A stretch of DNA of 64,000 nt from Patescibacteria group bacterium (GTDB lineage: Bacteria > Patescibacteriota > Patescibacteriia > Buchananbacterales > UBA6539): contig JAQTYZ010000002.1 of the NCBI GenBank assembly GCA_028688055.1, forward strand, positions 132,256-196,255. Reading direction: 5' to 3'. Shown here one piece after another: positions 8,426-48,399 of the stretch; the first letter of the stretch is position 1, and every line of letters begins with the position of its first letter. The notes under the pieces were generated by a model. It was not told the origin of the DNA. It searched no databases and saw only the letters and a list, made by a program, of their open reading frames with translations. Both the position numbers and the translations under genes were made by a program.

Positions 8426-9553
8426 TTACATTAAGGTTTGGTAGATTTTAATCAATTTTTCAAAGGCCGTTGGCCAAGTTTTAGCTAAGCAATTTTCACG
8501 CGCTTGCTGCGACATTTTAGCTCTTGTTATTTTTATTTTTAACAAATCTAGTCCGCGATTAAAATCATAGGCATTAGGTTTCAAAACAAAACCGGAAATT
8601 TTATCTTTAATAATTTCTTGCGGCCCGCCAACGTTAGTAACTAAGCAGGGAAGTCCTGACGCCTGAGCTTCCAGTACGGCGTTACCAAAAGTGTCGGTTC
8701 GTGACGGAAAAATAAAAACATCAGCCGAGGCATAAACTTCGCTCAATTTTTCGCCGGTGAGTTGGCCAAAAAATTTGGCCGTTGGCAATTTTTTTTGTAA
8801 CTCTTTTTTGTCGGGTCCGTCGCCAACCAGCCATAATTCATAATCCTTTCTGGTTTGCCAAATGGCCGCTAACAAATCCAGATTTTTTTCCGTTGATAAT
8901 CGGCCGACATAAAGTGCGACTAGTTTATTGTCCTTTGGTCTTTTGCTTTTTTGTGGGTTAAATAGTGTCGTATCAATGCCGCGTGGGAATAGTTTAACTG
9001 GCTTATTAAATTTTTTTATTTTTTCCGCCGTGGCTAGGCTTGGCGCCAATATTAAATTAACATTGCTGTAAAACCATTTTAAAGCCTGCTCGGTTGATAA
9101 TTGCGAGAAGTTAATTAGTGAGTTTTGGAGCTTGTCCGGAAATTTTTTTAAAATTTTCTGCGCTAAATTTTTAGCGTACTCATCAAGCTGAGTGTGAAAA
9201 ACGCCAATTTTTGGTTTCGTGTTTTTAGCCAAAATAATTCTGGCCGCAATGCCCAGCGAGCCGGGCGTGGCCAGGTGAAAAATGTCGTAGTTACCAGCTA
9301 ATAATTTTTGTTTAAAACCCGCTGGGGCAAATTTTAGATCAAAGGGTGGTAAATCGGGGTAGTATTTAATTGGTAAAGCAGCGGGGAATTCAAAAATATT
9401 TACTGATGCAATTTTTTTGGTCGTTAGTTTTTTACCAATCGTAAAAATATCTAACTCAATATTTTGGCTTTGGCAATATTGGGCAAATTGCTGATAGGTA
9501 CGGCTGACGCCGTTGGTGGCCGTATAGCTGTCGGTGATAAGCGCAATTTTCAT
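8426..9553 (-). CDS. glycosyltransferase family 4 (GT-B fold)
   Basis: 375 aa. C-terminal EAQASGLPCLVTNVGG motif typical of GT4/GT1 retaining glycosyltransferases. Confidence 0.85.
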   Translation of the reverse strand: MKIALITDSYTATNGVSRTYQQFAQYCQSQNIELDIFTIGKKLTTKKIASVNIFEFPAALPIKYYPDLPPFDLKFAPAGFKQKLLAGNYDIFHLATPGSLGIAARIILAKNTKPKIGVFHTQLDEYAKNLAQKILKKFPDKLQNSLINFSQLSTEQALKWFYSNVNLILAPSLATAEKIKKFNKPVKLFPRGIDTTLFNPQKSKRPKDNKLVALYVGRLSTEKNLDLLAAIWQTRKDYELWLVGDGPDKKELQKKLPTAKFFGQLTGEKLSEVYASADVFIFPSRTDTFGNAVLEAQASGLPCLVTNVGGPQEIIKDKISGFVLKPNAYDFNRGLDLLKIKITRAKMSQQARENCLAKTWPTAFEKLIKIYQTLM

Positions 9554-10074: not shown

Positions 10075-11523
10075 ATGGATAACAATAGTAATCATAAAAT
10101 GAAATTGAAGATCTCGGGTCTGCATTGCGCTAGTTGCGAGGTTTTGGTTGAACGTCAGTTCAAAACCGTGGCGGGCGTTGAAAAAGTTTATGTCAGTCAG
10201 GCCGCGGGCAAAGCGGTAGTCTATTATTCCGACCGTCCGGCTGTTGATGAATTGCAAGCCTCAATTAAAGCGGCTGGCTATGCCATTACGGCTTTAAACG
10301 GGCAGTCACTGGCGGCGACCGACCCTATCAGTAATGATAGTGAAAAAAATTATTTTCAAGTCGGGGCGATCTTTTTGATCGTTGCTGGCATTTACTTGTT
10401 GGCCAAAAAATTTAATTTATTGCCCGCCGGTTTTGGCGTGGCCGAAGGGATGAGCTATGGTTTTGTTTTTTTGATTGGCCTGGTGGCCTCAGTTTCAACT
10501 TGTATGGCGGTAACGGGCGGATTACTGTTAGCATCGGCGGCTAAGTACAGCGAGTTGCATCCCGATTTGTCGGCGGGGCAAAAAATTAAGCCGTTATTAT
10601 ATTTTAACGGCGGCCGCTTAGCTGGCTACACTTTTTTTGGCGGTTTGGTCGGCGGCCTTGGTGGCTTAATTACTTTCTCGCCCCGCGTTAATGGAATTAT
10701 TACCATTTTGGCCAGCTTAGCGATGGTGTTTTTAGGTTTGCAATTACTCCATTTATTCCCCGGTTTGCGACGGCTTCAAGTTAAACCGCCCAAGTTTATC
10801 AGTCATAAAATTCACGATCTGAGTGACAGTAATTCAAAGGTGGCCCCGGCGATTTTAGGGGCGCTTACTTTCTTTTTGCCTTGCGGTTTTACGCAGGCTT
10901 TACAGCTTTATGTTTTGGCTCATGGTGGCATTGTCAGTGGCGCGTTAACGATGTTTTTTTTCGCGCTGGGGACGATCCCGGCTTTGATTTCGGTTAGTGC
11001 GTTATCAAGTGTGTTGCGCGGTAAGCCATTATCATTGTTGCTAAAATTTGCTGGGGTGATTGCGGTGATGTTGGGAATATTCAATATTCAAAACGGCTTG
11101 GTTTTAGCGGGGGCGAGCTGGCCAAGTTTTAAGGCGCGAACCGTTGTTCAAACACCAACCAGCGTCGATCCTAATGTGCAGATTGTTAATGGTTGGCAAA
11201 TCATCAAAATGAAAGTTGACGGCGTCAACTATCTGCCATCACATTTCACGGTCCAAAAAGGCATTCCGGTTTCTTGGCAAATTGATGGTACCCAGGCCGC
11301 TGGTTGTATGAGTTCTCTCATTGCGCCGCAGTTAGGCATCCGCGATTATTTGCCGCGGACCGGTATTAAAACCATTGCCTTTACCCCGACCACCGCTGGA
11401 ACTTTCAAGTTTAATTGTCCAATGGGTATGGGTACGCCGGGCGCCGCCATCACGGTTATTGACGCGCCCACTCAAGGCGGTTCAAGCAGTTGTGATCCCG
11501 CCGTGGCTAATTGTCTAAATTAA
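10075..11523 (+). CDS. HMA-domain membrane protein (CcdA/DsbD-like TM core with Cys in TM segments) with C-terminal cupredoxin-like domain
   Basis: 482 aa. N-terminal heavy-metal-associated motif GLHCASCEV. Polytopic TM core with STCMAV and FFLPCGF cysteines. C-terminal ~130-aa beta-rich domain (NCPMGMGTPGAAITV). Directly upstream of copA. Confidence 0.55.
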   Translation: MDNNSNHKMKLKISGLHCASCEVLVERQFKTVAGVEKVYVSQAAGKAVVYYSDRPAVDELQASIKAAGYAITALNGQSLAATDPISNDSEKNYFQVGAIFLIVAGIYLLAKKFNLLPAGFGVAEGMSYGFVFLIGLVASVSTCMAVTGGLLLASAAKYSELHPDLSAGQKIKPLLYFNGGRLAGYTFFGGLVGGLGGLITFSPRVNGIITILASLAMVFLGLQLLHLFPGLRRLQVKPPKFISHKIHDLSDSNSKVAPAILGALTFFLPCGFTQALQLYVLAHGGIVSGALTMFFFALGTIPALISVSALSSVLRGKPLSLLLKFAGVIAVMLGIFNIQNGLVLAGASWPSFKARTVVQTPTSVDPNVQIVNGWQIIKMKVDGVNYLPSHFTVQKGIPVSWQIDGTQAAGCMSSLIAPQLGIRDYLPRTGIKTIAFTPTTAGTFKFNCPMGMGTPGAAITVIDAPTQGGSSSCDPAVANCLN

Positions 11524-11559
11524 CGATTAGGATTACTCTAACAGAACAGAATAAAAAAT

Positions 11560-13806
11560 ATGTCTATCAAAAAAACGGTTGATATTCGGGGGATGCATTG
11601 TGCCAGTTGCGCCCTGAATATTGAACACCAATTAAAAAAAATTACTGGCGTCACCAATGCCGTGGTTAATTATGCCAGCGAAAAAGCGACAGTTGAGTCG
11701 GATGCCGATATCGCCGATGACGCCATTAACAAGGCGGTGTCGTCGGCTGGTGATTATGAGGTGATTGAAAAAATGCCAGATCATAGTGGTCACAAAATGT
11801 CGGATATGTCTGGTCACGATCATGTGGCGATGCTGAAAGCGGCGGACCTTAAAATTTTGCGTCACAATGTGGTCGCCGGTACCATCGCCTCGGTGGCAAT
11901 TATGTTGTTAATGTTGGAACGCTTTATCCCGATCCTGATGTCGCTGGGCCAGCCGGTGATGTTTGCGCTTCAACTAATTATTGCTACCCCCATTCAATTT
12001 TGGCTGGGCCGGCAATTTTATCGTGGTGCCCAGTCGGGCTTGAAACGTTGGTCAGCGAATATGGATACTTTAGTCGCAGTCGGCACCACGGCCGCTTACG
12101 GTTATTCGGTCATTGCCACGTTATTCCCAAGTTTTTTTGCGTCCGCCGGTTTGGAAGTTAATGTTTATTATGACGCCGCGGTGGTCATTCTAACCTTGAT
12201 AATTTTTGGTAAGTACTTGGAGGCAACGGCTAAAGGTAAGGCGTCGGAAGCCATTAAAAAATTAGCCGGTCTGGCTGCTAAGACGGCGCATGTCATTAAA
12301 GCTGGTCAGGAAGTTGAAACACCAATTGACCAAGTTGTGGTCAGCGATATTATTGTCGTCCGTCCGGGCGAAAAGATTCCCGTTGATGGGGTGATTGTCG
12401 ATGGTGAGTCGGCGATTGATGAGTCGATGATCTCGGGTGAAAGTTTGCCCGTTGATAAAAAACCTGGTGACGCGGTTATTGGCGCGACGATCAATAAGTC
12501 TGGAATGTTTAAGTTGCGGGCGACCAAAATCGGTGCCGATACCGCCTTGGCCCACATCATTAAAATGGTGGAAGATGCTCAAGGATCAAAAGCACCAATT
12601 CAGAAATTAGCCGATATTATCTCCGGTTATTTTGTGCCGATTGTTATTGTTATTAGTATGGTCACGCTCGCAGTTTGGTTGGTCGTCGGCCAACCGTTTG
12701 CCTTAGCCTTCTTTGCCTTTGTGGCGGTACTCATCGTGGCTTGTCCGTGCGCCTTAGGTTTGGCCACGCCAACCGCCATTATTGTCGGTACTGGTCGTGG
12801 CGCTGAGCATGGGATTTTAATTCGTGACGCCGAAAGTCTTGAACGAACCGGTGAAGCGACCGCGATTATTTTGGATAAAACCGGTACCATTACCGAGGGC
12901 GCACCAAAGGTAACTGACGTTGTTACGGATAATGCCAATGATTTTTTGCATTTCGTCGGCTCAGCGGAAATTGGATCCGAGCATCCTTTGGGGCAAGCCA
13001 TTGTCGCTTACGCCAAAGAAAAAAATGTTGCGTTAGTTGAACCGAAGAATTTTTCTGTCATTTCCGGCTTTGGACTTAAGGCAATTGTTGATGGCAAAAC
13101 CGTTGCCGTTGGCAAGCGAGCATTTTTGCACGATTTGAAAATTGATGTCAATCAATATGATCAAAGGGCAAAAGATTTGGCGGCTCAAGCTAAAACCGTT
13201 ATTTATGCCGCTGTTGATGATAAAATTATTGGCGTTCTTGCCCTGGCCGATACGCTTAAGGCTGGGTCAGTCCAGGCCATTGCTGAATTAAAGGCTATGG
13301 GGTTGAAAGTAATAATGATTACTGGCGATAACATTCAAACCGCCAATGCCATTGCCAGCCAGGTTGGCATTACTGAGGTAAGGGCCGAAGTTTTACCGCA
13401 ATACAAATCACGAGCAGTCACTGAATTACAGCGGCAAGGTCAGAAAGTAATTATGGTTGGTGATGGTATTAACGATGCGCCGGCGCTGGCGGCGGCCGAT
13501 ATTGGTATGGCAATTGGTTCCGGGACCGACGTGGCGATGGAAGCGGCGGATATTACTTTGGTGTCAGGCGACTTGCGTAAAATAGTTTCGGCGATAAAAT
13601 TGAGCCGTAAAACAATGTCGACGATCAAATGGAATTTGTTTTGGGCGTTCGGGTATAACATTTTAGGTATCCCAGTGGCGGCCGGCGTGCTTTATCCGTT
13701 TTTTGGCATTTTGTTGCACCCGATTTTAGCGTCGGCGATGATGGCGTTTAGTTCAGTGTTTGTAGTGACCAATTCACTCCGTCTTAAAAAAACCAAGATT
13801 AACTAA
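11560..13806 (+). CDS. copA: copper-translocating P1B-type ATPase
   Basis: 748 aa. [16 protein letters not shown] motif ([11 protein letters not shown]), [13 protein letters not shown]. Confidence 0.95.
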
Positions 13807-13947: not shown

Positions 13948-14162
13948 TTTATCTTTAATAAAAAACGCCGTTGTTACCAGCGGTGTTTTTTAGTTTAAGT
14001 TAATTAACCAGCCCGAGTCGGGGAGTCGCCTCAAGCCCCGTGGCAACTTGGCAATTTTCAATCATTAATGCTAAAATAAAAACGGTACAATGAGGTGCCA
14101 CCATTGCGACAACGACGTCTAAAAGATTTTAGGCGCTTTTTTTATTATTTAAAAATAAAACT

Positions 14163-15374
14163 ATGGTTACTTTAGATACCGGCAACACCGCTTTTATGTT
14201 AATTGCCACCAGTCTCGTGATGTTAATGACTCCCGGCTTGGCCTTTTTTTACGGCGGCTTGGTCGGACGAAAAAATGTCTTGGCGATTATGATTCAAAGT
14301 TTTTTGTCGATGGGCTGGACGACGATGATCTGGTTTTTGGTTGGTTATTCGCTGACCTTCAGCGGCGATTGGTATGGTATCATTGGTAATCTTGACGCGG
14401 CCTTGCTCCGCGGTCTTGATGTTACGACGCTGCACCCCAACGGTTTTCCGTTGCTGGTGTTTGTTGCTTATCAGATGATGTTTGCCATTATTACGCCCGC
14501 TTTAATTACCGGTGCGTTTGCTAATCGAGTTTCGTTCAAAGCTTATTTATTTTTCTTAACCACTTGGTTAATATTTGTTTATTTCCCCATTGCTCATATG
14601 GCTTGGGGACCAAACGGTTTATTTCAGCAAATTGGTGCCCTTGATTTTGCCGGTGGCACCGTGGTTCATGCTACCGCCGGATTTGCCGCCTTGGCGTCGG
14701 TCTTATTTGTTGGCAAGCGAAAATTCAACGGTGAAGGTTCGCACAGTGTTCCGTTAGTAGCTTTGGGTACGGGGCTGTTATGGTTTGGTTGGTATGGTTT
14801 TAATGCCGGCAGCGAATTGGCCGCCGACGGTGTCACGGCGCTCGCTTTTTTAAACACTGATATTGCCGCTTCGATGGCAGCCGTGACTTGGCTGATGATT
14901 ACTTGGGTGCTTGAGAAAAAACCGAAGTTTGTTGGTTTATTAACCGGTGCGGTGGCCGGACTTGTTGCCATTACCCCAGCGGCTGGCTTTGTTACGCCCG
15001 GCAGTGCGTTTATTATTGGGATAGTTTCGGCTTTTGCTTGTTACGCCGCGGTGGCTTTAAAGAATCGGTGGCAGCTGGATGACGCGCTGGATGTTTGGGG
15101 TGTCCACGGTGTTGGTGGCGTTGTTGGTTGTTTGATGTTGGGCTTGCTAGCGACCACCACGGTTAACGCCGCGGGAGCTGATGGTTGGTTTTATGGTAAC
15201 CCGATGTTTTTTGTTAAAGAAGCGGCGGTCGTCTTGGGCGTTGTTATTTATGTCTTTATCTTTTCTTATTTAATGTTGTGGTTGATAAATAAAATCACGC
15301 CGGTTCGGATCACGTCGGCGGATGAGGAATTGGGTTTAGATGAGTCACTACACGGCGAAGTTGCCTACGAATAA
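14163..15374 (+). CDS. amt: ammonium transporter (Amt/MEP family)
   Basis: 403 aa, 11 TM helices, Amt signature regions (DFAGGTVVH..). Confidence 0.9.
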   Translation: MVTLDTGNTAFMLIATSLVMLMTPGLAFFYGGLVGRKNVLAIMIQSFLSMGWTTMIWFLVGYSLTFSGDWYGIIGNLDAALLRGLDVTTLHPNGFPLLVFVAYQMMFAIITPALITGAFANRVSFKAYLFFLTTWLIFVYFPIAHMAWGPNGLFQQIGALDFAGGTVVHATAGFAALASVLFVGKRKFNGEGSHSVPLVALGTGLLWFGWYGFNAGSELAADGVTALAFLNTDIAASMAAVTWLMITWVLEKKPKFVGLLTGAVAGLVAITPAAGFVTPGSAFIIGIVSAFACYAAVALKNRWQLDDALDVWGVHGVGGVVGCLMLGLLATTTVNAAGADGWFYGNPMFFVKEAAVVLGVVIYVFIFSYLMLWLINKITPVRITSADEELGLDESLHGEVAYE

Positions 15375-15533
15375 AATTACGTCAGTCAAAACAGCTCGTA
15401 TTCGCGCGGGCTGTTTTATTTTATTAATTTATTGGTAACACTAAAAATTCGTTAATAGTTTTCATAAAGTTATTCGTATATAAAAAAAGACCCGCGGTTC
15501 TCGTTTGAATCAAGTCCAATTTCGAGCGCGGGG

Positions 15534-15779
15534 CTAGGTGGCCGGTTCGGCCAACAGGTTTTCCAGGGCCGTGAGGAGGTCGCTGACATTTTTACTGCGG
15601 TCGGCGGCCTCGTCGCCAATGGTGTTGCTTGGGTCGGCGGCCTCGAGCCCAAATGATTTGAGGACGTTTGAGACTCCTGGATGTACCTTCAGGGCAGAAG
15701 CAATTGTCATCCCCGGATCAAATCTTCTTACCACTCTATGTGTGGCGGTTTTGGGGCTTTCTGTTTCCAAGGTGGTCAC
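15534..15779 (-). CDS. DUF1858-like (hybrid-cluster-protein-associated redox disulfide) paralogue that lacks the CxxC
   Basis: Its core MTIASALKVHPGVSNVLKSFGL...LLTALENLLAEPAT aligns with the neighbouring DUF1858 gene, but the CxxC region is replaced. GTG start abuts the SD, so the true start may be the internal ATG (58-aa product). Confidence 0.45.
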   Translation of the reverse strand: MTTLETESPKTATHRVVRRFDPGMTIASALKVHPGVSNVLKSFGLEAADPSNTIGDEAADRSKNVSDLLTALENLLAEPAT

Positions 15780-15955
15780 CCTCCTTAATATTCCTACTGA
15801 CGGTTAACGGTAAAAATACTTTATCATACTTTATCTTAGTTTTAGTTTAGCGTCAACGTGTTATATCTGTTTTAGTTGTTTGTTGGTAAACCCCGTCGTT
15901 AAAAAAAAGACCCCACGGGTACTGACCTTGATTAAGTCCAAAGTCAAGCGCGGGG

Positions 15956-16177
15956 CTAGGTGGCCGTTTCGGCCAACAGGTCTTCCAGGGCTTTGAGAAA
16001 ATCGTCGAGATTGACTCCTGCTTGGGTGCAAATGTGTTCCAAAGTGTCGGATTGCGCCGACGGGCAAGTAGTGCAGTAGCCGAGATGAAACCGTTCAAAG
16101 ACATCGTGTGCCTTGGAATGAGCATCCAGGGCATCAGCAACGCTCATCTGTGAATAGAAGCGCTTTTCGGCCGACAT
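15956..16177 (-). CDS. DUF1858 domain protein (hybrid-cluster-protein-associated redox disulfide domain)
   Basis: 73 aa. MSVADALDAH..VFERFHLGYCTTCPSAQSDTLEHICTQAGVNLDDFLKALEDLL matches the DUF1858 pattern (fhlgyC..CP..etLee...hGvdldell). TTGACA-17-TAAAGT promoter and AAGGAGG SD on the minus strand. Confidence 0.7.
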   Translation of the reverse strand: MSAEKRFYSQMSVADALDAHSKAHDVFERFHLGYCTTCPSAQSDTLEHICTQAGVNLDDFLKALEDLLAETAT

Positions 16178-16433
16178 AGCTTACTTCCTCCTTAGTTTAG
16201 ACCAGCCATTATTGGTTAAAATACTTTATCGTAGTTTTAGCTTGGTGTCAACTGTAGCGTTGCAGATAAAAATATTTGTATCTGCGTATTTGTAAAATTA
16301 TTAGCATGTTGTCATATACAAAAATAAAAAAAGACCCCGCACCATTTTTCCGAATGAATTAGATCCGGGGGTTTAGGTGCGGGGGCTAAGCAAAGGTCAA
16401 TTTGTTAAATCTAGCCTAGCGGCTGGTCCACGA

Positions 16434-17408
16434 TTAGGCGAGTTTCAGGGATTCGAGAAAATGCTCGCGGGTGAAGACGGAAAGATCGCAGGTCGTCGGG
16501 TTGATCGCTTGGTTGGCCAAGGAAAATAACACGGGCAGGGAAGTCATCTCGCCGGGGAGAAGTTTAACGTTAGGCCCGATGTCTTCCATCTCGACCATGG
16601 CCGGCCCCGGGTTGTCAACTTGTGCCGACGGGCCAACGTACATCGCGGCGTTGCACCCGGGGATGGGGTAGGACAAGTTGTGATTGTAAGGCGGCGCGGC
16701 CTTGAATAGCGTCATGTCCTTATTCGGTATGATCATGGCTTGTCCACCAAAGGGGGAAGTCCAGGCGCGTTTGGCCTCTAGACCGGAAGGCAGGAGAAGG
16801 TGCAACCACTGTCCGTCAGAGATGACCTGACTGAATTGCCCGTCGCCGTCGTCACTGGTCGTGTGGCCACCACCCCATTTGGGGAAGTGGACGACCGTGA
16901 AGGAATCCCAAGCGTCATCGCCGCTATTCAGGCGACTGGTGTAGACCGCATCCGTTGACACGGGGTCGGTGCAGGTGATCGGCCAGATTCCGCCGGATAT
17001 AAGCATATCCCCGGCATTCTTAACGAAGCTAACCACATCGACCATACTGTCCGCCAAAGGCCGAATAATGAACCCTTTGACGAGTTGCATCTCGTCGGGC
17101 GGTGCCGTGAAGACGAAGCTGCCGTCCTCGAATTCGCCGACCTTAATGGGGCCAGTGTCGGGCGTGTAAGCCCCGTGATGCTCATCGGCACCTTCCAGTG
17201 CCCACCAGACCCGAAGGCCACCCCTCAACTGCCACAGCCCGCGCCTGAACTTGCCTTCCGGATCAAGGTAGAGCAAGTTCGTGTTTATGTCTGGACCAAG
17301 ATGGGCGATCCGCAGAAACGTCGTGAATATCACCAACTCGATCCCGGCCAGACTCAGGTGGACTGCTGATTGACCTTGAAACTGGATATCTCTTCTTGTG
17401 AACCTCAT
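16434..17408 (-). CDS. hypothetical protein (GC-rich island C; possibly sugar-metabolism partner of the adjacent isomerase)
   Basis: 324 aa, ~58% GC. In an apparent operon downstream of the FucI-like gene. Intrinsic terminator at 16325-16360 on the minus strand. Confidence 0.5.
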   Translation of the reverse strand: MRFTRRDIQFQGQSAVHLSLAGIELVIFTTFLRIAHLGPDINTNLLYLDPEGKFRRGLWQLRGGLRVWWALEGADEHHGAYTPDTGPIKVGEFEDGSFVFTAPPDEMQLVKGFIIRPLADSMVDVVSFVKNAGDMLISGGIWPITCTDPVSTDAVYTSRLNSGDDAWDSFTVVHFPKWGGGHTTSDDGDGQFSQVISDGQWLHLLLPSGLEAKRAWTSPFGGQAMIIPNKDMTLFKAAPPYNHNLSYPIPGCNAAMYVGPSAQVDNPGPAMVEMEDIGPNVKLLPGEMTSLPVLFSLANQAINPTTCDLSVFTREHFLESLKLA

Positions 17409-17448
17409 CTTTTTCTTTGCTCCTGTTGTTGTACTTCTTTCGGTTTCG

Positions 17449-18927
17449 TTAGTCTTCTTCGGGTCGTTCGTGGCGGTAGGTTGTCATGCCGAAATAGTTC
17501 TCGAAAGCCTCGGTGATGGCGTCGGCATGGTTGCCAAAACCGATAGCCACATGGTGTGGGAATCCGTTGCGACAAGCGATCCGTACAAGTTTGTCGAGCT
17601 TTGGCACGGCAATGATGCCAAAGCCGCCAAAGGTGGTGATTTGGTCTTCGGTGGTAACACCTTGCGCGGTGTACGCCATACATTGGCCGTCCGCGTCGTT
17701 GGTCGTCATCCGGCAGAGTGTGACATTTTGATTCGGCGCGAACGCGCCTTCAATGGTACCGTAGGTACTTTCTTTTCCGACGGTGCCAGCGATGATCGCT
17801 TGATAGCCCATCATGGGTTTGACCAGGAACGATCTGGCGATATTGCTACAGTGGAAGGCAACGAAGGTTCCCTTACGCGGGCCGTTGTTGTTCCAGTCCA
17901 CCAGTGCCGCCGGATTTCCCGATGCAAGTTGTAGAGCGCGCATACTGACGGCTCCGCAGACATCGACTTCGCAAGCCGCACAGAACAGCGAATCGCTGAG
18001 CATACTCATGATCGCGCAGGGGACCACGCCGTAGTGTTGCTGCAAAGCAGTCCAACACTGGATTGCCAGGGCATCGATTTCGTTTTCTTCGCGGAAGCGG
18101 TTGATAACGACGGCCAGTTTGGCCATCTTCAGCAATGCATCCAGAGGGATATGCGAGGTTTCAACATAAGCCTTGATGGCTTCAACCTGGGCTTTGACCG
18201 TTTCGTCGTCGTCGGCGAGTGCGTTGGCTTGGCCGATGACTTCGGACAAATCGAGCGTGATGACCTGGATGCCAAGGACTTGGGCCAACAAGGTCTCGCT
18301 ATACCGCATGGTGCGGAAAGCGTCGGGTCGCGTGCCAATGGCACCGATGCGACAGCCACGCAATCCCTGGACCACCCGGCAGGTCGCCGCGAATTGATCG
18401 ACCTCGGCTTTGAATTCGTCGCTGGCCGGGTCGAGCGTGTGCGATTGGGTCAGGCTGAAGGGAATACCGAGCTGGGTCAGGTTGTTGCAGACACTGAATT
18501 TGCCGCAGAACGAATCGCGGCGTGTTGCGATTGTCATCGCGGCGCAGTCATCGGCAAAGGCGTGCACCAAAATCGGTACATTGAGCCCGGCCATTTGTAG
18601 GGCTTCGGCGACCGCTTTTTCATCGCCGAAGTTAGGCAGTGTGACGATCACGCCGTCGATTACGTCACCGTGCTTCCGGAAAAGCTCCGCGCACTGTTTC
18701 GCATCTCGATGGCTTTCTATCGCCCCACCGAATTGAGTGTCGTTCTCGGCGAGGACGACGACGTCATAGCCAAGGCCTTTGAGGTTCTCGACCATTTGTC
18801 GTCGGCCATTGACCGCCAGTTCACTTGGGAAAAACCCCCGCGTGCCGACAATCAGTCCAAATGTGGTTCTTCGTTGCATCCTGATTTCCTCTCTTTCTAC
18901 AATCACTTCGCTGTGGTTTAACTGCAC
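17449..18927 (-). CDS. L-fucose isomerase-like family protein (FucI/AraA superfamily)
   Basis: 492 aa. N-terminal FGLIVGTRGFFP substrate-binding-domain signature. AACEVDVCGAVSM corresponds to the FucI catalytic ATENDSLNGVAM region. The true start may be the internal Met at 18879. Confidence 0.7.
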   Translation of the reverse strand: MQLNHSEVIVEREEIRMQRRTTFGLIVGTRGFFPSELAVNGRRQMVENLKGLGYDVVVLAENDTQFGGAIESHRDAKQCAELFRKHGDVIDGVIVTLPNFGDEKAVAEALQMAGLNVPILVHAFADDCAAMTIATRRDSFCGKFSVCNNLTQLGIPFSLTQSHTLDPASDEFKAEVDQFAATCRVVQGLRGCRIGAIGTRPDAFRTMRYSETLLAQVLGIQVITLDLSEVIGQANALADDDETVKAQVEAIKAYVETSHIPLDALLKMAKLAVVINRFREENEIDALAIQCWTALQQHYGVVPCAIMSMLSDSLFCAACEVDVCGAVSMRALQLASGNPAALVDWNNNGPRKGTFVAFHCSNIARSFLVKPMMGYQAIIAGTVGKESTYGTIEGAFAPNQNVTLCRMTTNDADGQCMAYTAQGVTTEDQITTFGGFGIIAVPKLDKLVRIACRNGFPHHVAIGFGNHADAITEAFENYFGMTTYRHERPEED

Positions 18928-19205
18928 AAATTGTCAAACAACATCCTCCAAAATCAACTGCAACTTACTTAAAAATGGCTTAATTGTCAAGGATAATTCT
19001 CTTTACTAGAACAGCCCTTGTTCTCAAAATTAGAGAATTAAATACCCTTGACAATTTCACATTTTCCCTTAGAATGTGCATATTCATGATATTGTCTTAT
19101 TTTTTCTTTAAAATTATTGGAAAAATATGTACAAAAATGTCAAAAAATATTATAATGAAGGGGTTTTACTGATATTTTTTAGACATCAACGATAACAGAT
19201 AATAT

Positions 19206-19475
19206 ATGAATGATCGACAGTGGCAACCAATTGTTGCCTTTGGCTTGACTCTGTCGGGCTGGCTGGCCGCACCCTTAATTGCCGCTCTGTTTATCGGCCG
19301 TTATCTTGATAACCATTGGTCGATTGAGCCCTGGGGCACTCTCGCCGCTGTTGGTATCGCCTTTATCATTTCTAATGTGGGAATGGTCATTGAAGCTAAA
19401 CACTTGTTTAAACAAATAAATCAAACTAGTCAGAAATTATCGAAACCAGAAAACCATGACAATCGAAACGAATAA
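19206..19475 (+). CDS. ATP synthase protein I / AtpZ-like small membrane protein
   Basis: 89 aa with 2 TM helices, immediately upstream of atpB. Confidence 0.45.
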   Translation: MNDRQWQPIVAFGLTLSGWLAAPLIAALFIGRYLDNHWSIEPWGTLAAVGIAFIISNVGMVIEAKHLFKQINQTSQKLSKPENHDNRNE

Positions 19476-20364
19476 CCAAATTCAAAATACAGCACAACCA
19501 GACGCGGCTACTTTAGCCGGCGAAACGGTAACTGATAGTGAGACAACTAGTAGTGTTCATCAGCCGACTCTTTTTGCTGAGCCGGTTTTCAATATTGGCA
19601 GTTTTACGGTTACTAATTCCTTGCTAAGTTCCTGGATTGTTTTGAGTGTCATTTTATTGATTGCGGTAGCTATCAGATTGTCATTGAAAAAGGTGCCGCG
19701 GGGGATTCAAAACTATTTTGAGGTGGTTGTTGATGGGGCGCTTAATTTGGCTGATTCGGTGACTGGCTCACGCGCCAAGAGTATGAAATTTTTTCCCATC
19801 GTTTTTCCACTTTTTTTATTTATTCTTTTAAATAACTGGTTGGGAATTTTGCCGGGCGTCGGTTCGATTGGTTTTAACACCATTGAAGAGGGTCATCAGA
19901 TTTTTATTCCATTTTTACGCGGTGGCACCGCTGACCTCAACACCACCTTGGCGTTAGCAATTGTGGTCGTCATTGCCACGCACGTCGCCAGTATTGCTAT
20001 GACCAGCACTTGGCAGTATCTTAATCGTTTCATCGGTATTGATTTATTTTTAGAATTACCAAAAAAGATTTTTAAGCATCGCGAATTTACAGCAGTTTTG
20101 GTTAATCCGATTAAATTTTTAGTCGGCTTAATCGAAATTGTCGGCGAATTCGCCAAAGTCGCTTCATTGTCATTTCGATTATTCGGTAACATTTTTGCCG
20201 GCGAGGTTTTGCTCGGCGCGATGGCGATGATTTTTGCTTATATTCTGCCAGTGCCGTTTATTTTTTTGGAAATTATTGTTGGACTGGTTCAAGCGATGAT
20301 TTTTTCAATTTTAACTTTGGCGTTCCTCACGGTGATGACCATCGATCACGGTGAGGCACACTAA
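19456..20364 (+). CDS. atpB: F0F1 ATP synthase subunit a
   Basis: 302 aa. LSFRLFGNIFAGEVLL motif carrying the conserved Arg. Confidence 0.9.
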   Translation: MTIETNNQIQNTAQPDAATLAGETVTDSETTSSVHQPTLFAEPVFNIGSFTVTNSLLSSWIVLSVILLIAVAIRLSLKKVPRGIQNYFEVVVDGALNLADSVTGSRAKSMKFFPIVFPLFLFILLNNWLGILPGVGSIGFNTIEEGHQIFIPFLRGGTADLNTTLALAIVVVIATHVASIAMTSTWQYLNRFIGIDLFLELPKKIFKHREFTAVLVNPIKFLVGLIEIVGEFAKVASLSFRLFGNIFAGEVLLGAMAMIFAYILPVPFIFLEIIVGLVQAMIFSILTLAFLTVMTIDHGEAH

Positions 20365-20384
20365 ATTAATAATTAACTAATTAA

Positions 20385-20612
<228 letters not shown>

Positions 20613-20686
20613 TTTTTTTATCGGCACTGCGTCGTTTTCACGGGGGAGCGCCGATGGCTAAAACTATTTATTACTGAACTTAAGTT

Positions 20687-21196
20687 ATGGAATCAATTAT
20701 TACAACTTTTCATATCGATTGGCGTTTGTTAATTGCCCAAGCCGTCAATTTTGGTTTAGTGGTCGGGGTGTTGTGGTGGTTTGCGGTTAAACCATTGACC
20801 AAGTTAATGGCTGAACGCAGCGCCACGATTGAAAAAAGTTTGCACGACGCCGAAGAAATTACCAAAAAACTTCAAGTTGCTGAGGAGGAAAAGCGACAGC
20901 TTATTAATCATGCCCGAGTGCAGTCTCAGGAAATTATCGCTCAAGGCCAGGCGCGCTCGGCGGAAGCCACCGCGCTGGCGGTTAACCGTGCCAAAGAACA
21001 GGTCAAAAAAATTATTGAAGAATCAAAACGGGAAATTGCCAATGAGCAAAAGAAAATGATGGTCGAAGCCAAATCGGAAATTGTTGAGGTTGTGACCGCG
21101 GCGGTTAACGCCGTTTTAGCCACCGCCGTTGATAAAAAAGTTGATGCCAAGCTGGTTGAGGAAACAGTGTCAGCGCTTAATCAGACTACTAAATAA
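20687..21196 (+). CDS. atpF: ATP synthase subunit b
   Basis: 169 aa. N-terminal TM helix and a long charged coiled coil. Confidence 0.85.
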   Translation: MESIITTFHIDWRLLIAQAVNFGLVVGVLWWFAVKPLTKLMAERSATIEKSLHDAEEITKKLQVAEEEKRQLINHARVQSQEIIAQGQARSAEATALAVNRAKEQVKKIIEESKREIANEQKKMMVEAKSEIVEVVTAAVNAVLATAVDKKVDAKLVEETVSALNQTTK

Positions 21197-21198
21197 CG

Positions 21199-21597
21199 AT
21201 GAAAGTAACACCCAAACAACTAGCGGCGGTCTTAGCCCAAGCGACAGCCGATGTTAAAGGATCGGAACTGGCTAGCATTTTGGAAAATTTTTTTCAATTG
21301 GTAAAACGTTCGTACTTAATGTCGCGGTTGCCGGAAATTATTTTGGAGTATAAAAAATATTATCTGGCCGCCCAAGGAATAATAGCGGTTAAGGTTCAAT
21401 CAAGTCGGCCGTTGACCAGCTCGGAACATAATCAGTTGGTCAAACAACTCAAAGCACTGACGGGAAAAAATATTGAATTAACCGATACGGTTGACTTGAG
21501 TCTGGGCGGGGGAATCAAGCTCCAGTATGAAGACACTTTGATTGACGGTACCATCAAACGCCGCGTGGAAAATTTAAAATCATTATTAAAAAGTTAA
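21199..21597 (+). CDS. atpH: ATP synthase subunit delta (OSCP), short form
   Basis: 132 aa. Lies between atpF and atpA. OSCP-like C-terminal motifs. Confidence 0.7.
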   Translation: MKVTPKQLAAVLAQATADVKGSELASILENFFQLVKRSYLMSRLPEIILEYKKYYLAAQGIIAVKVQSSRPLTSSEHNQLVKQLKALTGKNIELTDTVDLSLGGGIKLQYEDTLIDGTIKRRVENLKSLLKS

Positions 21598-21620
21598 CGC
21601 TTTAGAAATATTAAAAAATT

Positions 21621-23135
21621 ATGTCAAACAATCGGATTATCGATGCCCTCACGCAACAGCTAAAACAATACAAGGCCGACCCAGCAGTCGAAAAGGTTGG
21701 TACCGTTTTAGAAATCGGTGACGGCATCGCCAAAATTAGCGGTTTGTCGTCAGCCATGGCCGGCGAAATGCTTGATTTTGGCAATGGTGTGATGGGCGTC
21801 GCTCTTAATTTAGAAGAAGATTTTGTCGGTGCTATTGTTTTGGGCGATTATCAAAAAATTATTCAGGGTACAACGGTCAAGACTACCGGCCGGATTTTGG
21901 AAGTGCCCGTCGGCGACGGGATGATCGGTCGCGTGGTTGATGCTTTAGGTCAGCCGCTCGACGGCCGCGGTGCGATTTCAACTAAAACTTTTTATCCGTT
22001 AGAAAAAATTGCCCCGCGCGTTATTACTAGACAAGGGGTGAGCGTGCCGTTGCAAACCGGTATTAAAGCGATTGACGGGATGATTCCGATTGGTCGCGGC
22101 CAGCGCGAATTAATTATTGGCGATCGGCAAACCGGTAAAACTTCCATTGCGATTGATACCATTATTAATCAAAAGGGTCAGGATGTTATTTGTATTTACG
22201 TGGCGATTGGTCAAAAAAGTTCCAAGGTGGCCCGAATCGTTTCGGAGTTGACCAATGGTGGGGCAATGGATTATACAACTGTTGTGTTGGCCTCGTCATC
22301 TGATCCGGCTTCTTTACTTTATTTGTCACCCTTTGCCGGCTGTGCCATTGGTGAATATTTTATGGATCAGGGCAAAGACGTTTTAGTTATTTATGATGAT
22401 TTATCCAAGCACGCGGTGGCTTATCGAGAAATCGCGTTGGTGTTGCGACGCCCGCCGGGACGCGAAGCTTATCCGGGTGATATTTTTTATCTTCACTCAA
22501 GATTATTAGAGCGGGCCGCGCGTTTAAGTAAAGATTATGGTGGCGGTTCCTTAACCGCGTTGCCAATCATTGAAACTCAAGCCGGTGATATTTCCGCCTA
22601 CATTCCGACTAACGTTATCTCAATTACTGACGGCCAAATCTTTTTGGAAACGGACTTATTTTATCAAGGCGTTCGGCCCGCGATTAACACCGGTTTGTCA
22701 GTGTCGCGCGTTGGATCGGCGGCCCAAATTAAGGCTATGAAAAAAGTGGCCGGCAAAATGAAATTGGATATGGCGCAATATCGAGAATTGGCTGCCTTCG
22801 CGCAGTTTGGTTCTGATTTGGATGAGGCGACGAGAAAACAGATTCATTTAGGCCAGCGTTTAACGGAAGTTTTAAAGCAGGGACAATTTCAACCCTTGCC
22901 CGTTGTTTTGCAAGTTACCATTTTATATGCGGCGACTAACGGCTATTTGGATGACGTGCCGGTTGAAAAAGTTCGCGAGTTTGAAGCAGGATTGTTGGGC
23001 TATGCGCAAGCTCACGGTCAAGCGATCTTGAAAAACATCGCCGAGAAAAAAGAAATTGTTGAAGCCACCGAACATCAATTGCGCGGTTTGATTGTAGAAT
23101 ACAAACAGAGCCTTGATTATCTAACTAAAGCTTAA
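21621..23135 (+). CDS. atpA: ATP synthase subunit alpha
   Basis: 504 aa. P-loop GDRQTGKT and alpha-subunit signature. Confidence 0.97.
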
Positions 23136-25939: not shown

Positions 25940-26359
25940 ATGTCTAAACATTCTTGTGCCGCGATGGTCATTCGTTGTATTGATTTTCGCATCGCCCCTA
26001 AAAATTTATCAGAATTGCTTTCCGAAGCTGGGATGTGCCATGACGGTGATTATGATTTAGTTTCGGTCGCCGGATCTGGCAAGGATTTATTATCAGAAAA
26101 TACAACCGAGCGTGATTTTATCTTAAAGCAGATAAATATTTCAAAAAAACTTCATGACATTAAAACTATTTATATTTTAATGCATGACAACTGCGGCGCC
26201 TATGCCATTCCAGATGCGGTGGAAGAACATAATATTCAAGTTAAGGATCTAAAGCAAGTTGAGCAATATCTTAATTCGGTGCTGACTGATGTTGAAATCA
26301 AAGGATTTATCGTTAAGGGTGTTCCGACTGGTATATTGTCATTGGAGTCAGTTTATTAG
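25940..26359 (+). CDS. hypothetical protein with beta-carbonic-anhydrase-like zinc motifs
   Basis: 139 aa. CIDFR (C-x-D-x-R) at ~23 and HDNCGAY (H-x-x-C-G) at ~92. AT-rich host composition. Terminator at 26378-26406. Confidence 0.45.
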   Translation: MSKHSCAAMVIRCIDFRIAPKNLSELLSEAGMCHDGDYDLVSVAGSGKDLLSENTTERDFILKQINISKKLHDIKTIYILMHDNCGAYAIPDAVEEHNIQVKDLKQVEQYLNSVLTDVEIKGFIVKGVPTGILSLESVY

Positions 26360-26377
26360 TTTTTAAAAGTCATTTAA

Positions 26378-26406
26378 GGCGGTGGTTTTGCCACCGCTTT
26401 TTTTAT
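26378..26406 (+). terminator. rho-independent terminator closing the atp operon
   Basis: ggcggtgg-ttttg-ccaccgc + TTTTTTT. Confidence 0.6.
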
Positions 26407-26515
26407 TTAACTCTTGACAAAATACCATAATATGTTATGGTAATCCCTTCGTTTGTTCCAGGTGAACAAATGATTTAGTTACTAATTGGGTCAAGGCAAC
26501 AGGAGGATTTGACCA

Positions 26516-27544
26516 TTGATCTATACAGTAAGCACCAATCAGCTGTTGGCGATGGCGGCCAGACATTCGGAGCAGTTCCTAAGGGAACAGCTGAATCGAC
26601 AAGATTTTCTCAGAAAACATCCGGTTCAAATTGCGGGTATCTCCTGCATGGACGGCCGGACAAAACTGAGTGCAATCTTTGGGCTCCGCTTCGGCTTTAT
26701 CCGACGGCAATGGCGAACTTTAGCCGGTGTGGTTGATTTGGGCGCCCCTCGTTTTAGGGCTTCCGTCGACAATTGGCGAAGTTACGCCAAGCAAAACGAT
26801 CAGGATAGCTTAGTGTTTGTCAGCTATCACTACTCGGGCAGAAATGACGCCCAACTCGGTTGTCGTGGTCATCACCACAACAAAGACCGAGCGCTGGCCG
26901 CGGCCCTGAAGATTTACGAACAATTCGTTCGTGTCTATGGTGAAACGATGCCATGCCCGGTGGTCATTGGCATTGATACTGACTTTGAGACAGTTTATGT
27001 CCACGATCAGAAGGGTTCTATTATCGACGCGAGCAGTTTCGTCAATCAGCCGGAGGCAGATATTGTGGAATGTCTTGCCGGCGGTTTCCCGAGTATGCCG
27101 AAGACAGTGCTAGAGGTTTTAGCCTTGGCGGTCAAAGGTAACGCTGTTCATACGTCCGGCCTTAAAGCGGCCAAACGTCCGATTGAAGAGGCTCAGCACC
27201 ACGAGTATGCCCTCGTCGTTGGCGAGGGGATGTGGACTGAGCCGAACTCAGCAATTGTTGTTGGTCCTTACACTCTGGATTTTGGCGAATCGATCGGTGT
27301 CGCCGCTGGATTGCTGTCGGACAATTTCGACAAGGGTCGGGCCAATGGCAATGATCCGGTCCTGTTGTCTTGTGCGGTTTTCCGCGATTCGGAAATCGCT
27401 CGTCGCGGTGCGATTGAAGAAGCTCGATGTTTTCTGGATTATTCGCAGCAGGTCATTGCCAAGCAAGTCCCTGACTTCGCCAAGCGTCTGATCTATCATG
27501 CGAGTGTTCTCGATTTGAATAATCGCCTCGTCGAGCTAGTCTAG
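26516..27544 (+). CDS. hypothetical protein (GC-rich island D, TTG start)
   Basis: 342 aa, ~53% GC. AGGAGG SD. Promoter region contains the perfect inverted repeat ACCATAAtatgTTATGGT at ~26417-26434. Terminator at 27573-27606. Confidence 0.5.
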   Translation: MIYTVSTNQLLAMAARHSEQFLREQLNRQDFLRKHPVQIAGISCMDGRTKLSAIFGLRFGFIRRQWRTLAGVVDLGAPRFRASVDNWRSYAKQNDQDSLVFVSYHYSGRNDAQLGCRGHHHNKDRALAAALKIYEQFVRVYGETMPCPVVIGIDTDFETVYVHDQKGSIIDASSFVNQPEADIVECLAGGFPSMPKTVLEVLALAVKGNAVHTSGLKAAKRPIEEAQHHEYALVVGEGMWTEPNSAIVVGPYTLDFGESIGVAAGLLSDNFDKGRANGNDPVLLSCAVFRDSEIARRGAIEEARCFLDYSQQVIAKQVPDFAKRLIYHASVLDLNNRLVELV

Positions 27545-44404: not shown

Positions 44405-44585
44405 AGAGATCTGGTTTGACTTATTGAGGTTAATGAACTATTTTTAACCTACCAACATAGCACGATAAAGCAGAATCAACATAGCGTCCCCGTAAGGGGG
44501 TTTTTGATTTGTCTAATTTTGGTATTATGGACACAGATTTGTTGGTGTATTAAGATTTATAATAATTGAAATAATCAAATAAGTT

Positions 44586-45113
44586 ATGCATGATTCAGAA
44601 AAATTTAAAGAAGCCATGAAAAGTATGCCTGATAATAGCATTGATGATTTTACTAAAAATATTGTAAAATTTTTATTAAAATTTAATGATGAGCAGATTA
44701 ATACAGTATCATTCGTGTTTTGGTTAGTTTATGTCGCAGAACTTAAATTAGACGAATTTAGAATACACGCATGGGAAGTAGCAGAAAAGGATTCTTCTGA
44801 AGATATAATTGATAGAGCTAAGCAGATGCTTACTGATAAAATTAATTTAGATAGGTCAGTTATCAATAACCCTAGATATTTTTCTGAAAAAATAAAATTT
44901 TTTGAAGGTGTTATAGGAAAAAATGATTTTGTTGAGATTTTATATATTTTAAGAGATTTGAGAAATGATATAAGTCATTTACGTATAGATAATTTAAAAT
45001 ATAAAGAATTATCTCTCTACACAAGAGAAGCAAAGGAAAATCTTATAATTGATTTTGTTGAGTCGGCAAGGAATTGCAATGCATCTAAATCTGATTTTAG
45101 GCAGTTTATCTGA
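44586..45113 (+). CDS. small HEPN-like protein (R-N-x-x-x-H motif; element cargo)
   Basis: 175 aa. ILYILRDLRNDISHLRID, which resembles the LRxxRNxxxH HEPN catalytic helix. Own TGgTATTATGGACA extended -10 box. Confidence 0.4.
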   Translation: MHDSEKFKEAMKSMPDNSIDDFTKNIVKFLLKFNDEQINTVSFVFWLVYVAELKLDEFRIHAWEVAEKDSSEDIIDRAKQMLTDKINLDRSVINNPRYFSEKIKFFEGVIGKNDFVEILYILRDLRNDISHLRIDNLKYKELSLYTREAKENLIIDFVESARNCNASKSDFRQFI

Positions 45114-45188
45114 GTTTTTAATCCTTCTTGTTTAAACTTAAGGTGGCAGATGGTTGGGTCGTCATTATACATGAATATTTAATTTAAT

Positions 45189-48328: not shown

Positions 48329-48399
48329 ACTCAAATAAGCCAAATTCTATTTATTAACCCCTAATTAAAGTTCACAACGTTCACACGTTCACAAAGTAT

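Follow-up and report, generated by a model that had tools for sequence, protein, structure and literature searches.

Small stand-alone proteins of the TIGR03980/DUF1858 family, represented by the structures 2K5E and 2K53, are about 70 amino acids (aa) long and carry a CxxC motif; we know of no biochemical function for the family. Among the aldose–ketose isomerases of the FucI/AraA superfamily, the L-arabinose isomerase AraA (E. coli 2AJT/4F2D, G. kaustophilus 4R1O, T. maritima 7CWV) has about 496 aa and FucI (1FUI, 4C20, 3A9R) about 590 aa, with N-terminal domains. A mutarotase that feeds an aldose–ketose isomerase is a familiar arrangement, and the galactose mutarotase/aldose 1-epimerase superfamily, to which the YeaD-type hexose-6-phosphate mutarotases and the NCBIfam TTE1925 family belong, has a beta-sandwich fold. 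Here we describe four adjoining minus-strand genes whose products resemble these proteins. They lie in a 64,000-nucleotide (nt) stretch of DNA (the window) on contig JAQTYZ010000002.1 of a Patescibacteria (candidate phyla radiation, CPR) metagenome-assembled genome, and they encode, in the direction of transcription, an AraA-like isomerase, a 324-aa protein and two small paralogues that we call dufA and dufB. An earlier note, made from the letters of this DNA, had remarked that a sugar isomerase beside redox-sensing DUF1858 proteins is an unfamiliar combination.

Each product resembles its described counterpart in part. DufA is like the stand-alone DUF1858 proteins in its length and in the position of its CxxC, and differs from them by an extra 10-residue C-terminal tail (EDLLAETAT) past the domain; dufB differs in having no CxxC helix. 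The isomerase is like AraA in fold and length (about 476 versus about 496 aa), its E..D..H..HH spacing parallels the four metal ligands, and its relatives in other phyla adjoin araB/araD, but the sequence identity is about 12% and there is no Pfam AraA match. With FucI the isomerase shares the C-terminal domain and the superfamily fold, whereas its 476 aa give no Pfam match to the N-terminal domains of the longer enzyme. The 324-aa protein has the beta-sandwich of the mutarotases and stands directly after an aldose–ketose isomerase, as GalM does in one locus that we compared (L013), but it has neither a PF01263 match nor a PDB sequence match. All of these proteins belong to known kinds or are distantly related to them, and GenBank already contains all four genes.

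We think it probable, on balance, that the interval holds three independent units in a GC-rich patch, namely a bicistronic sugar operon, dufA and an old tandem paralogue, dufB, and that their adjacency is incidental.

Three predicted transcription units without conserved linkage

Four open reading frames, all on the minus strand, were found where the earlier note had put them: 15534..15779 (81 aa), 15956..16177 (73 aa), 16434..17408 (324 aa) and 17449..18927. The four proteins have exact counterparts in GenBank, MDD2807342-45, annotated as a hypothetical protein of 66 aa (MDD2807342, the dufB locus), a 'disulfide oxidoreductase' of 73 aa (MDD2807343, dufA), a hypothetical protein of 324 aa (MDD2807344) and a 'fucose isomerase' of 476 aa (MDD2807345). 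Smaller features that had been listed for the interval also exist, at positions that needed correction by 1–5 nt. The features used below are as follows, in coordinates of the window.

15483..15532, minus strand: predicted intrinsic terminator of dufB, a two-tier hairpin and then a T-run (RNA fold, −17.3 kcal/mol, z −1.1)
15534..15770, minus strand: dufB, a CxxC-less DUF1858-derived paralogue of 78 aa from TTG 15770 (nucleotide alignment with dufA)
15828..15856, minus strand: predicted dufB promoter, TTGACG-17-TAAAGT (promoter scan, pattern search and cassette alignment)
15900..15956, minus strand: predicted intrinsic terminator of dufA, a hairpin that begins at the G of the stop codon (RNA fold, −23.4 kcal/mol)
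15956..16177, minus strand: dufA, a DUF1858/TIGR03980 protein of 73 aa with C35-T-T-C38 (matches to TIGR03980, PF08984 and 2K5E)
16223..16251, minus strand: predicted dufA promoter, TTGACA-17-TAAAGT (promoter scan and pattern search)
16262..16285, no strand: 24-nt palindrome GCAGATA-N10-TATCTGC (repeat search, I4), the sole exact site in the window
16326..16387, minus strand: predicted intrinsic terminator of the isomerase/324-aa operon (RNA fold, −25.8 kcal/mol, z −3.5)
16434..17408, minus strand: 324-aa protein with a galactose-mutarotase-like beta-sandwich fold (AlphaFold2 (AF2)/Foldseek and NF052227)
17449..18879, minus strand: AraA-like aldose–ketose isomerase of 476 aa, FucI/AraA superfamily (PF02952 and AF2/Foldseek)
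18962..18990, minus strand: candidate operon promoter, TTGACA-17-TAAGTT (read by eye, −10 box matching at 3 of 6 positions, not in the promoter scan; low confidence)

The sugar operon, dufA and dufB appear to be three transcription units, each with its own predicted promoter and terminator. When we searched the window for the combined −35/−10 pattern of the small genes, six matches were found at up to two mismatches against 1.3 expected, and the dufA and dufB sites were the sole exact ones. A perfect 10-nt tandem duplication at 15816–15835 (ATACTTTATC twice) doubles the −10 box of dufB and lengthens its leader relative to that of dufA. The hairpins of the terminators have long loops and were missed by a simple terminator scan. 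The final letters of all three terminators are GGGTCTTTTTTT. The dufB terminator has its 5' arm and T-run in common with that of dufA, and in the distal arm and inner stem the pairing is kept through different bases, which suggests that both terminators still work. The region's strongest terminator (that of the sugar operon) stands between the operon and dufA, and in another Patescibacteria genome (L002) a homologous terminator follows a 323-aa homologue of the 324-aa protein.

To ask how often these genes occur together elsewhere, we used loci with relatives of the isomerase in species-representative genomes, found with a 5-sequence alignment as the query; all neighbourhood counts are for the best 80 of at least 596 such loci. 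No DUF1858 gene was found by tblastn in these 80 loci (up to ±6 kb) or in the fetched flanks of eight loci with homologues of the 324-aa protein. Plasmids of Peptoclostridium and Cetobacterium carry a DUF1858 gene that is followed by the gene for a conserved protein of about 210 aa (L090 3983–4815; L091 3980–4815; 34% identical, E 5e-46), which looks like a conserved, unnamed partner of DUF1858; one of these two loci, that of Peptoclostridium, also holds a hemerythrin-domain protein and the Fe-S carrier MrpORP. Tblastn with the hemerythrin and the ~210-aa protein gave no match in the window, where we annotated about 24 genes around the interval; the 20 flanking genes among them are unrelated to hybrid cluster protein, hemerythrin/RIC-type or Fe-S functions. 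Given the lack of conserved linkage and the separate predicted promoters and terminators, the adjacency of the DUF1858 and sugar genes looks incidental, and we read their combination as plain neighbourhood and not as a system.

The candidate promoter of the operon faces away from an ATP-synthase promoter at 19048–19075 on the plus strand. The AT-rich spacer between the isomerase and ATP-synthase genes contains three plus-strand copies of the motif AATTGTCAA, within 18929–19056 and 19135–19154. This motif also forms a 17-nt inverted repeat (18982–18998 and 19040–19056) that overlaps the −35 boxes of both divergent promoters, and it might be their common operator.

The palindrome upstream of dufA is real and unique in the window, with a spacer of N10 and an end at 16285 in place of the n11 and 16287 first given. 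Its centre lies about 58 nt upstream of the inferred transcription start of dufA, upstream of the −35 box. The cassette alignment shows only a related half-site, ACAGATA, upstream of dufB. At up to three mismatches, 86 of 100 shuffles gave at least one site, and the exact match is unusual, not extreme. The palindrome is a candidate regulator-binding site that may control dufA.

The interval is a compositionally distinct, GC-rich patch. GC content at third codon positions (GC3) is 0.59–0.70 in its four genes, compared with 0.43–0.50 in the flanking genes, and its intergenic spacers are AT-rich (GC 0.29–0.40). On the plus strand it is flanked by an ammonium transporter gene (14163..15374) and by the ATP-synthase operon, which begins at 19206. 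No tRNA gene flanks the interval and the closest integrase gene is 18 kb away. Rfam returned no RNA family within 14000–20500 at E ≤ 1, and PADLOC matched none of the four proteins to a defence system.

dufA and its diverged paralogue dufB

We found that dufA matches TIGR03980 ('hybrid cluster protein-associated redox disulfide domain') at 46.3 bits against a cutoff of 44.95, and PF08984 (DUF1858) with E 1.6e-6 and 28.6 bits, below the gathering cutoff of 32.2. Its membership of TIGR03980/DUF1858 is borderline by these models, and the DUF1858 identity proposed for this gene is supported. DufA aligns over its whole length with the nuclear magnetic resonance (NMR) structures 2K5E (E 1e-5) and 2K53, with C35-T-T-C38 on C-I-G-C of 2K5E and on C-L-G-C of 2K53. 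The cysteines of dufA are those of its YCTTCP motif and one more; dufB has none, so the observation that the upstream copy alone has a CxxC was correct. A selenoprotein form of DUF1858 with CxxU is listed among prokaryotic selenoproteins (PMC9312934), and a redox role of the dufA CxxC would fit with the existence of this form. In the model that we favour, dufA would be monocistronic, and the CxxC of its small helical product would make up a redox-active disulfide.

The start codon of dufB is most likely TTG 15770. In the alignment of the two genes this TTG lies under the ATG of dufA, and both codons follow AAGGAGG, the putative Shine–Dalgarno (SD) sequence, by 9 nt; we took dufB as 15534..15770 because of this position and the equal spacing. 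Alternative starts are GTG 15779 (81 aa), which abuts the SD sequence, and GTG 15734 (66 aa, the GenBank length) and ATG 15710 (58 aa), which have no SD sequence. The internal ATG start that had been suggested for the downstream copy is less likely than the aligned TTG.

The homology of dufB to dufA is clear (BLASTP, 35% identity, E 6e-11). Against the Pfam and TIGR03980 models, dufB reached 12.9–13.6 bits (E about 0.08) over its N-terminal 25 aa only, and judged by these scores it is a derived non-member of the family. Relative to dufA it has an N-terminal insertion of 10–13 residues, and in place of the dufA segment GYCTTCPSAQSDTLEHIC it has EAADPSNTIGD-EAADRSKNVSD. The corresponding DNA contains an internal 33-nt repeat (D8, 15579–15644; 73% at the DNA level, 6 of 11 residues), which Tandem Repeats Finder (TRF) did not call and which points to a probable 11-aa internal tandem duplication. 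With its CxxC helix replaced, dufB could not carry out thiol–disulfide chemistry.

Nucleotide alignment of the two cassettes showed what they have in common: the −35/−10 pair, the AAGGAGG SD sequence, the last ~16 codons and the first terminator arm. The common promoter, SD sequence, C-terminal tail and terminator that the earlier note had described are all evident in this alignment. A repeat search returned the cassettes as family D1 (117 nt, 74% identity, spacing 422 nt). A 32-nt tract across the stop codon, CTGTTGGCCGAA[AC]CGGCCACCTAGCCCCGCGC, has exactly two copies in the window, against 0 expected, and these differ at one base. The 18-mer reported as common to both cassettes is real, with copies at 15526–15543 and 15948–15965 and not at 15525–15542 and 15943–15960.

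Divergence between the genes is uneven. Over the 31 codons of the N-terminal region, the proportion of synonymous differences (pS) is 0.71, near saturation, and that of non-synonymous differences (pN) is 0.40; in the central segment pN exceeds pS. Identity is 72% in the 5' non-coding part, 79% in the 3' non-coding part and 81% in the last 16 codons (pS 0.24). Synonymous divergence near saturation, together with ends that are 72–81% identical, is incompatible with uniform divergence after a recent duplication. We infer that the duplication is old and that the ends were kept alike by short-tract gene conversion, by selection on expression signals, or by both.

We rejected an assembly artefact because the copies differ at about half of the central positions. 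A diversity-generating retroelement, considered as a source of the conserved and variable tracts, was likewise rejected: the mismatches between the copies, read from the alignment, are not adenine-specific, and the ~24 genes annotated around the interval include no reverse transcriptase gene. Separately, an independent assembly of the same sequence (L001, a Logan contig of 7652 nt) stops 44 nt past the dufA stop codon, inside the repeated terminator tract, which would fit a break in assembly where the 3' segment is duplicated. The 3' codons of the 324-aa gene (HFLESLK, 16443–16474) also resemble the DFLKALE codons of dufA (15983–16014) and dufB (15561–15592), at 75% and 69%, respectively, over 32 nt. 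A 24-nt likeness of these 3' ends is, by our estimate, at about chance level across all pairs in the region, and the resemblance could be chance or convergence.

That dufB might be a decaying duplicate or a neofunctionalised partner had been left open; the replacement of its CxxC stands, and plain decay does not fit well. Scored against four outgroup DUF1858 proteins, the N-terminal segment of dufB (MTIASALKVHPGVSNVLKSFGL) reaches 76/26/34/33, compared with 43/21/17/25 for dufA, so that the N-terminal third of dufB is nearer to the family consensus than that of dufA. Its reading frame is open, with only 6.5% of shuffles of the 62 diverged codons free of a stop, its pattern of GC content at the three codon positions (GC1/GC2/GC3) is like that of dufA, and all length differences between the genes preserve the frame. 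Because the N-terminal third beats that of dufA against the outgroups, the frame is intact and pN is below pS N-terminally, dufB is most likely not a plain decaying duplicate. Together with the missing CxxC helix, the outgroup scores suggest that in dufB the first helices and the last one are retained from the ancestor and the redox helix has been lost. On this model dufB would retain the first two helices and the last one, with the apparent 11-aa duplication in place of the CxxC helix, and would still be expressed, as a non-redox paralogue.

We also considered that dufB is a non-functional remnant that has drifted since it lost the catalytic helix, its frame and signals being leftovers or held alike by gene conversion from dufA. 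The lack of any cysteine and the failure of both family models (E about 0.08) would be expected of such a remnant, as would the excess of pN over pS in the central segment, the 10-nt duplication that hit the −10 box and a GenBank call of just a 66-aa hypothetical protein; chance alone would leave the frame of the diverged core open in about the 6.5% of cases given above. Against it stand the closeness of the N-terminal third to the outgroup proteins, the N-terminal pN below pS with every length difference in frame, a start codon and SD sequence at homologous positions, and terminator pairing kept through different bases. We regard a remnant as possible, though on balance unlikely, and prefer a dufB that would still be expressed.

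A predicted isomerase–mutarotase operon

The isomerase most likely starts at ATG 18879, as in GenBank, and not at GTG 18927, which had been taken before and is less plausible. Its sole Pfam match is PF02952 (Fucose_iso_C; 69.6 bits, cutoff 29.3, residues 358–482). No AraA family was returned by Pfam or NCBIfam scans, the best NCBIfam match was to the sulfoquinovose isomerase SftI (NF048012; 98.8 bits against a cutoff of 700), and a single-sequence PDB search found nothing at E < 0.01. An exhaustive search retrieved 3070 representative relatives, of which 284 were below E 1e-30 and the best was 47% identical. We then built an AF2 model on 23 relatives, with a predicted local distance difference test (pLDDT) score of 95. 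In Foldseek this model matched the L-arabinose isomerases 7CH3, 4R1O, 4F2D and 2AJT over the whole chain, with template modelling (TM) scores of 0.80–0.83 and E 1e-25 to 1e-23. FucI/D-arabinose isomerase came second (TM about 0.76, TMt 0.61–0.65), those proteins being about 110 residues longer.

Profile alignment gave putative counterparts of the AraA metal ligands. The family profile matched T. maritima AraA with E 1.2e-3. In this alignment the Glu of GAEGDW is matched by E304, the His of GAHMLE by H343 and SHH by H442/H443; D328 lies opposite the Asp of MEDY, one position away from the Glu that was expected. We take these four motifs to supply the four Mn2+ ligands of AraA (Glu, Glu, His, His). 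In the alignment of 23 sequences, D306 and H343 are invariant and E304, D328, H442 and H443 nearly so. With three of the four ligand positions aligned and the fourth one residue off, the catalytic acids do not appear to have been lost. The assignment to the FucI/AraA superfamily is thus upheld by the PF02952 match and the aligned ligands, whereas the label 'FucI-like' is not, the protein being nearer to AraA.

The neighbours of related genes point in the same direction. A scan of species-representative genomes with the single isomerase protein found nothing; the best 80 loci from the alignment query, 48–57% identical, come from Planctomycetota, Acidobacteriota, Hydrogenedentota, Armatimonadota, Verrucomicrobiota, Chloroflexota, Bacillota and others, and none from Patescibacteria. 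An FGGY kinase is encoded in 44 of these 80 loci, an araD-like class II aldolase/epimerase in 43 and a canonical aldose 1-epimerase in eight, and individual loci have GH127 and GH51 arabinofuranosidases and components of sugar ABC transporters. The family is best read as an analogue of the L-arabinose isomerase of araBAD-type systems, to judge from these alignments and neighbourhoods, and L-arabinose, or an aldose close to it, is the most likely substrate. A literature search on non-orthologous AraA returned nothing usable.

The 324-aa protein has no Pfam match, and neither the single protein nor a 16-sequence family profile matched a PDB sequence below E 0.5. We found 16 homologues among 5.8 billion protein clusters. 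The AF2 model is an all-beta sandwich (pLDDT 88.7, predicted TM score (pTM) 0.90), and its Foldseek matches, 3MWX, 2HTB, 4BZE, 3NRE and 2CIR (E 1e-9 to 1e-7, TM 0.50–0.58), are led by stand-alone mutarotases: B. subtilis GalM, YeaD, E. coli b2544 and yeast hexose-6-phosphate mutarotase. All 16 family members match NF052227 (TTE1925 family mutarotase), at best with E 2.5e-24 and all far below the equivalog cutoff; the window protein does so with its N-terminal half only (E 7.9e-7, 28.5 bits against a cutoff of 550). By these scores the family appears to be a distant relative, not a member, of the TTE1925-family mutarotases, on which a literature search found nothing usable. As regards the catalytic His/Glu pair of aldose 1-epimerases, the family alignment contains an invariant MVEME (E273, E275), a near-invariant H182 and a GGHR motif. 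Together, the fold and the NF052227 matches bear out the aldose-epimerase-like fold that had been suggested for this protein.

Genomic context supports a mutarotase role as well. The 324-aa gene follows the isomerase gene after a 40-nt gap in which no terminator was predicted, and the two look co-transcribed, as had been proposed. In a Buchananbacteria genome (L005), a 64%-identical homologue lies 49 nt downstream of a gene for a xylose-isomerase-like protein of 350 aa (4411–5463), GC-rich and with no Pfam match, that matched xylose isomerase structures (3KTC, E 5e-8). The family is therefore paired with aldose–ketose isomerases of two different folds. In another Patescibacteria genome the homologue follows an MFS transporter, and a distant homologue lies among KDPG-aldolase, SDR, AraC and GFO/IDH genes. 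In L013, a canonical aldose 1-epimerase directly follows the isomerase, in the slot that the 324-aa gene occupies here. In the proposed operon, an AraA-type metal-dependent aldose–ketose isomerase would be followed by a mutarotase-fold protein that interconverts sugar anomers, so that the isomerase gets the form that it can open.

Alternatively, the operon may use a different sugar, such as D-galactose/tagatose, L-fucose, a rare pentose or a sulfosugar. It may also be that the 324-aa protein binds carbohydrate or is some other non-catalytic beta-sandwich, and not a mutarotase. SftI is the best sequence-model match of the isomerase, though far below the cutoff, the window has no araB or araD, and the partners of the 324-aa family vary (MFS transporter, xylose-isomerase-like protein, AraA-like isomerase). 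The fold is also that of non-catalytic domains of YidC, phosphorylases and glycosidases, and a near-invariant His of the family is Leu in the window protein. Relatives of the isomerase, however, occur mainly with araB, araD and arabinofuranosidase genes, the top fold matches of the 324-aa protein are stand-alone mutarotases, every family member matches the TTE1925 model, and the pairing with isomerases of two folds also speaks for a mutarotase. We consider these alternatives unlikely and retain the arabinose-type isomerase with a mutarotase-like partner as our working model.

Independent units or a redox-coupled module

Several observations weigh against three incidentally adjacent units as we have described them. 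The z-scores of the dufA and dufB terminators are modest, and dufB could be silent or untranslated. Neither araB nor araD is present in the 64-kb window, and the substrate assignment rests on relatives that are only 50–57% identical. Residue 65 of the 324-aa protein is Leu (GGLR), where 14 of the 14 homologues aligned at this position have His (GGHR), and a mutarotase-like activity might be altered or lost as a result. The pairing of the isomerase with a 324-aa protein is unique to this genome, the 80 isomerase loci being without a homologue of the latter. The linkage data come mainly from the side of the sugar genes, with only two to three plasmid DUF1858 loci in addition. Finally, homology and pattern searches retrieved no close relatives of dufA and dufB: word-indexed searches with both gave nothing beyond the proteins of the window itself, and in metagenome scans there was no match to peptide patterns derived from the dufA/dufB alignment or, as exact DNA, to a 27-nt core of the common 3' tract.

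In a single module, the DUF1858 pair and the sugar operon would work together; for instance, the CxxC protein could sense redox state and, with its CxxC-less partner, adjust how active or how metal-loaded the isomerase is, or how strongly the operon is expressed. The units do adjoin on the same strand and have raised GC3 in common, the palindrome lies between the operon and dufA, and both small genes keep strong predicted expression signals. No DUF1858 gene accompanies the 80 isomerase relatives or the eight loci with 324-aa homologues, however, and a strong terminator (z −3.5) separates the operon from dufA. The DUF1858 genes seen elsewhere adjoin the gene for the ~210-aa protein, with hemerythrin and Fe-S genes also present at one locus, and DrpB, a protein with a DUF1858 domain, is known from work on nitrate respiration in Thermus (PMC6282519). 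We consider such a module very improbable. A more specific version, in which DufB is a neofunctionalised, redox-inert partner or decoy that modulates DufA, and the pair couples redox state to a neighbouring, laterally acquired pentose isomerase/mutarotase operon in an organism of minimal metabolism, would have a slimmer chance still. More likely than this DufA–DufB coupling, and less far-reaching, would be a reading in which the 324-aa proteins form a new sugar-mutarotase clade that persists in Patescibacteria as a GC-rich module with interchangeable upstream partners (AraA-like isomerase, xylose-isomerase-like protein, MFS transporter). Incidental adjacency of three independent units thus remains the reading that we favour.

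Origin of the small genes and of the GC-rich patch

The least probable account, and a very remote one, is that each small gene was captured separately as a mobile cassette, integron-like or of a similar kind, with common recombination ends, and that no in-situ duplication took place: the ends of the two genes are far more alike than their coding cores, the conserved 3' element is hairpin-rich and the patch is compositionally foreign, but the cores are still homologous, each gene has its own promoter, unlike integron cassettes, the nearest integrase gene is 18 kb away with no flanking tRNA, and the 32-mer occurs nowhere else in the window and its 27-nt core nowhere in the metagenome collection scanned. 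An integron or other cassette array was rejected on account of the promoter of each cassette and the distant integrase, with no tRNA alongside and no attC-like core.

The sugar genes may have been exchanged between genomes. Homologues of the 324-aa protein in two other Patescibacteria genomes (L002 8001–8972; L005 4411–6493) have a GC3 of 0.67–0.75, compared with 0.26–0.54 in their neighbours, and they lie within the DHH/ValRS/TyrRS/response-regulator/GT4 block that is also present in the window. The 324-aa homologues are 64–71% identical to the window protein at the amino-acid level, similar to the housekeeping neighbours (63% for TyrRS and 53–55% for GT4). The three 324-aa copies are about equidistant, whereas TyrRS groups the other two genomes at 81%. 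This disagreement suggests that a sugar module was exchanged laterally, or acquired repeatedly, at a preferred site. L005 also has a gene of the bAvd/23S_rRNA_IVP family (8535–8918), an accessory protein of diversity-generating retroelements, between its response-regulator and TyrRS genes.

Other features of the window

Upstream of the ammonium transporter gene lie a copper ATPase gene and a gene for a DsbD_2/HMA/cupredoxin protein; the latter encodes a 482-aa HMA/DsbD_2/cupredoxin-like fusion directly upstream of the copper P-type ATPase (10075–13806), and this thiol- and copper-handling pair is two genes from the DUF1858 genes. Two carbonic-anhydrase-like genes (25940–27544; Pro_CA_2 and a match to the CsoSCA catalytic domain) lie downstream of the ATP-synthase genes (19206–23135). 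A possible integration hotspot is a low-GC cluster on the minus strand at 32932–34886, which comprises genes for tRNA-His, an HNH endonuclease, two tRNA-Arg and a tyrosine recombinase (Phage_integrase). An 8-kb segment at 44000–52000 has a very low GC content (0.28–0.35) and a strongly positive GC skew (0.2–0.3), unlike the rest of the window.

Implications

If our reading is correct, the region adds little that is new in kind: a member of a known CxxC family, a diverged paralogue of it and an operon of an isomerase and a putative mutarotase. Within these families, the GenBank name 'fucose isomerase' would be corrected towards an AraA-like enzyme, and the rare 324-aa family, which lies outside Pfam, would gain functional support from its genomic context. 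As a natural CxxC-minus variant of DUF1858 with conserved N-terminal helices, dufB would offer a ready control for the function of the domain. Carbohydrate metabolism in Patescibacteria is sparse, and the patch would provide one example of compositionally foreign sugar-utilisation genes in this group.

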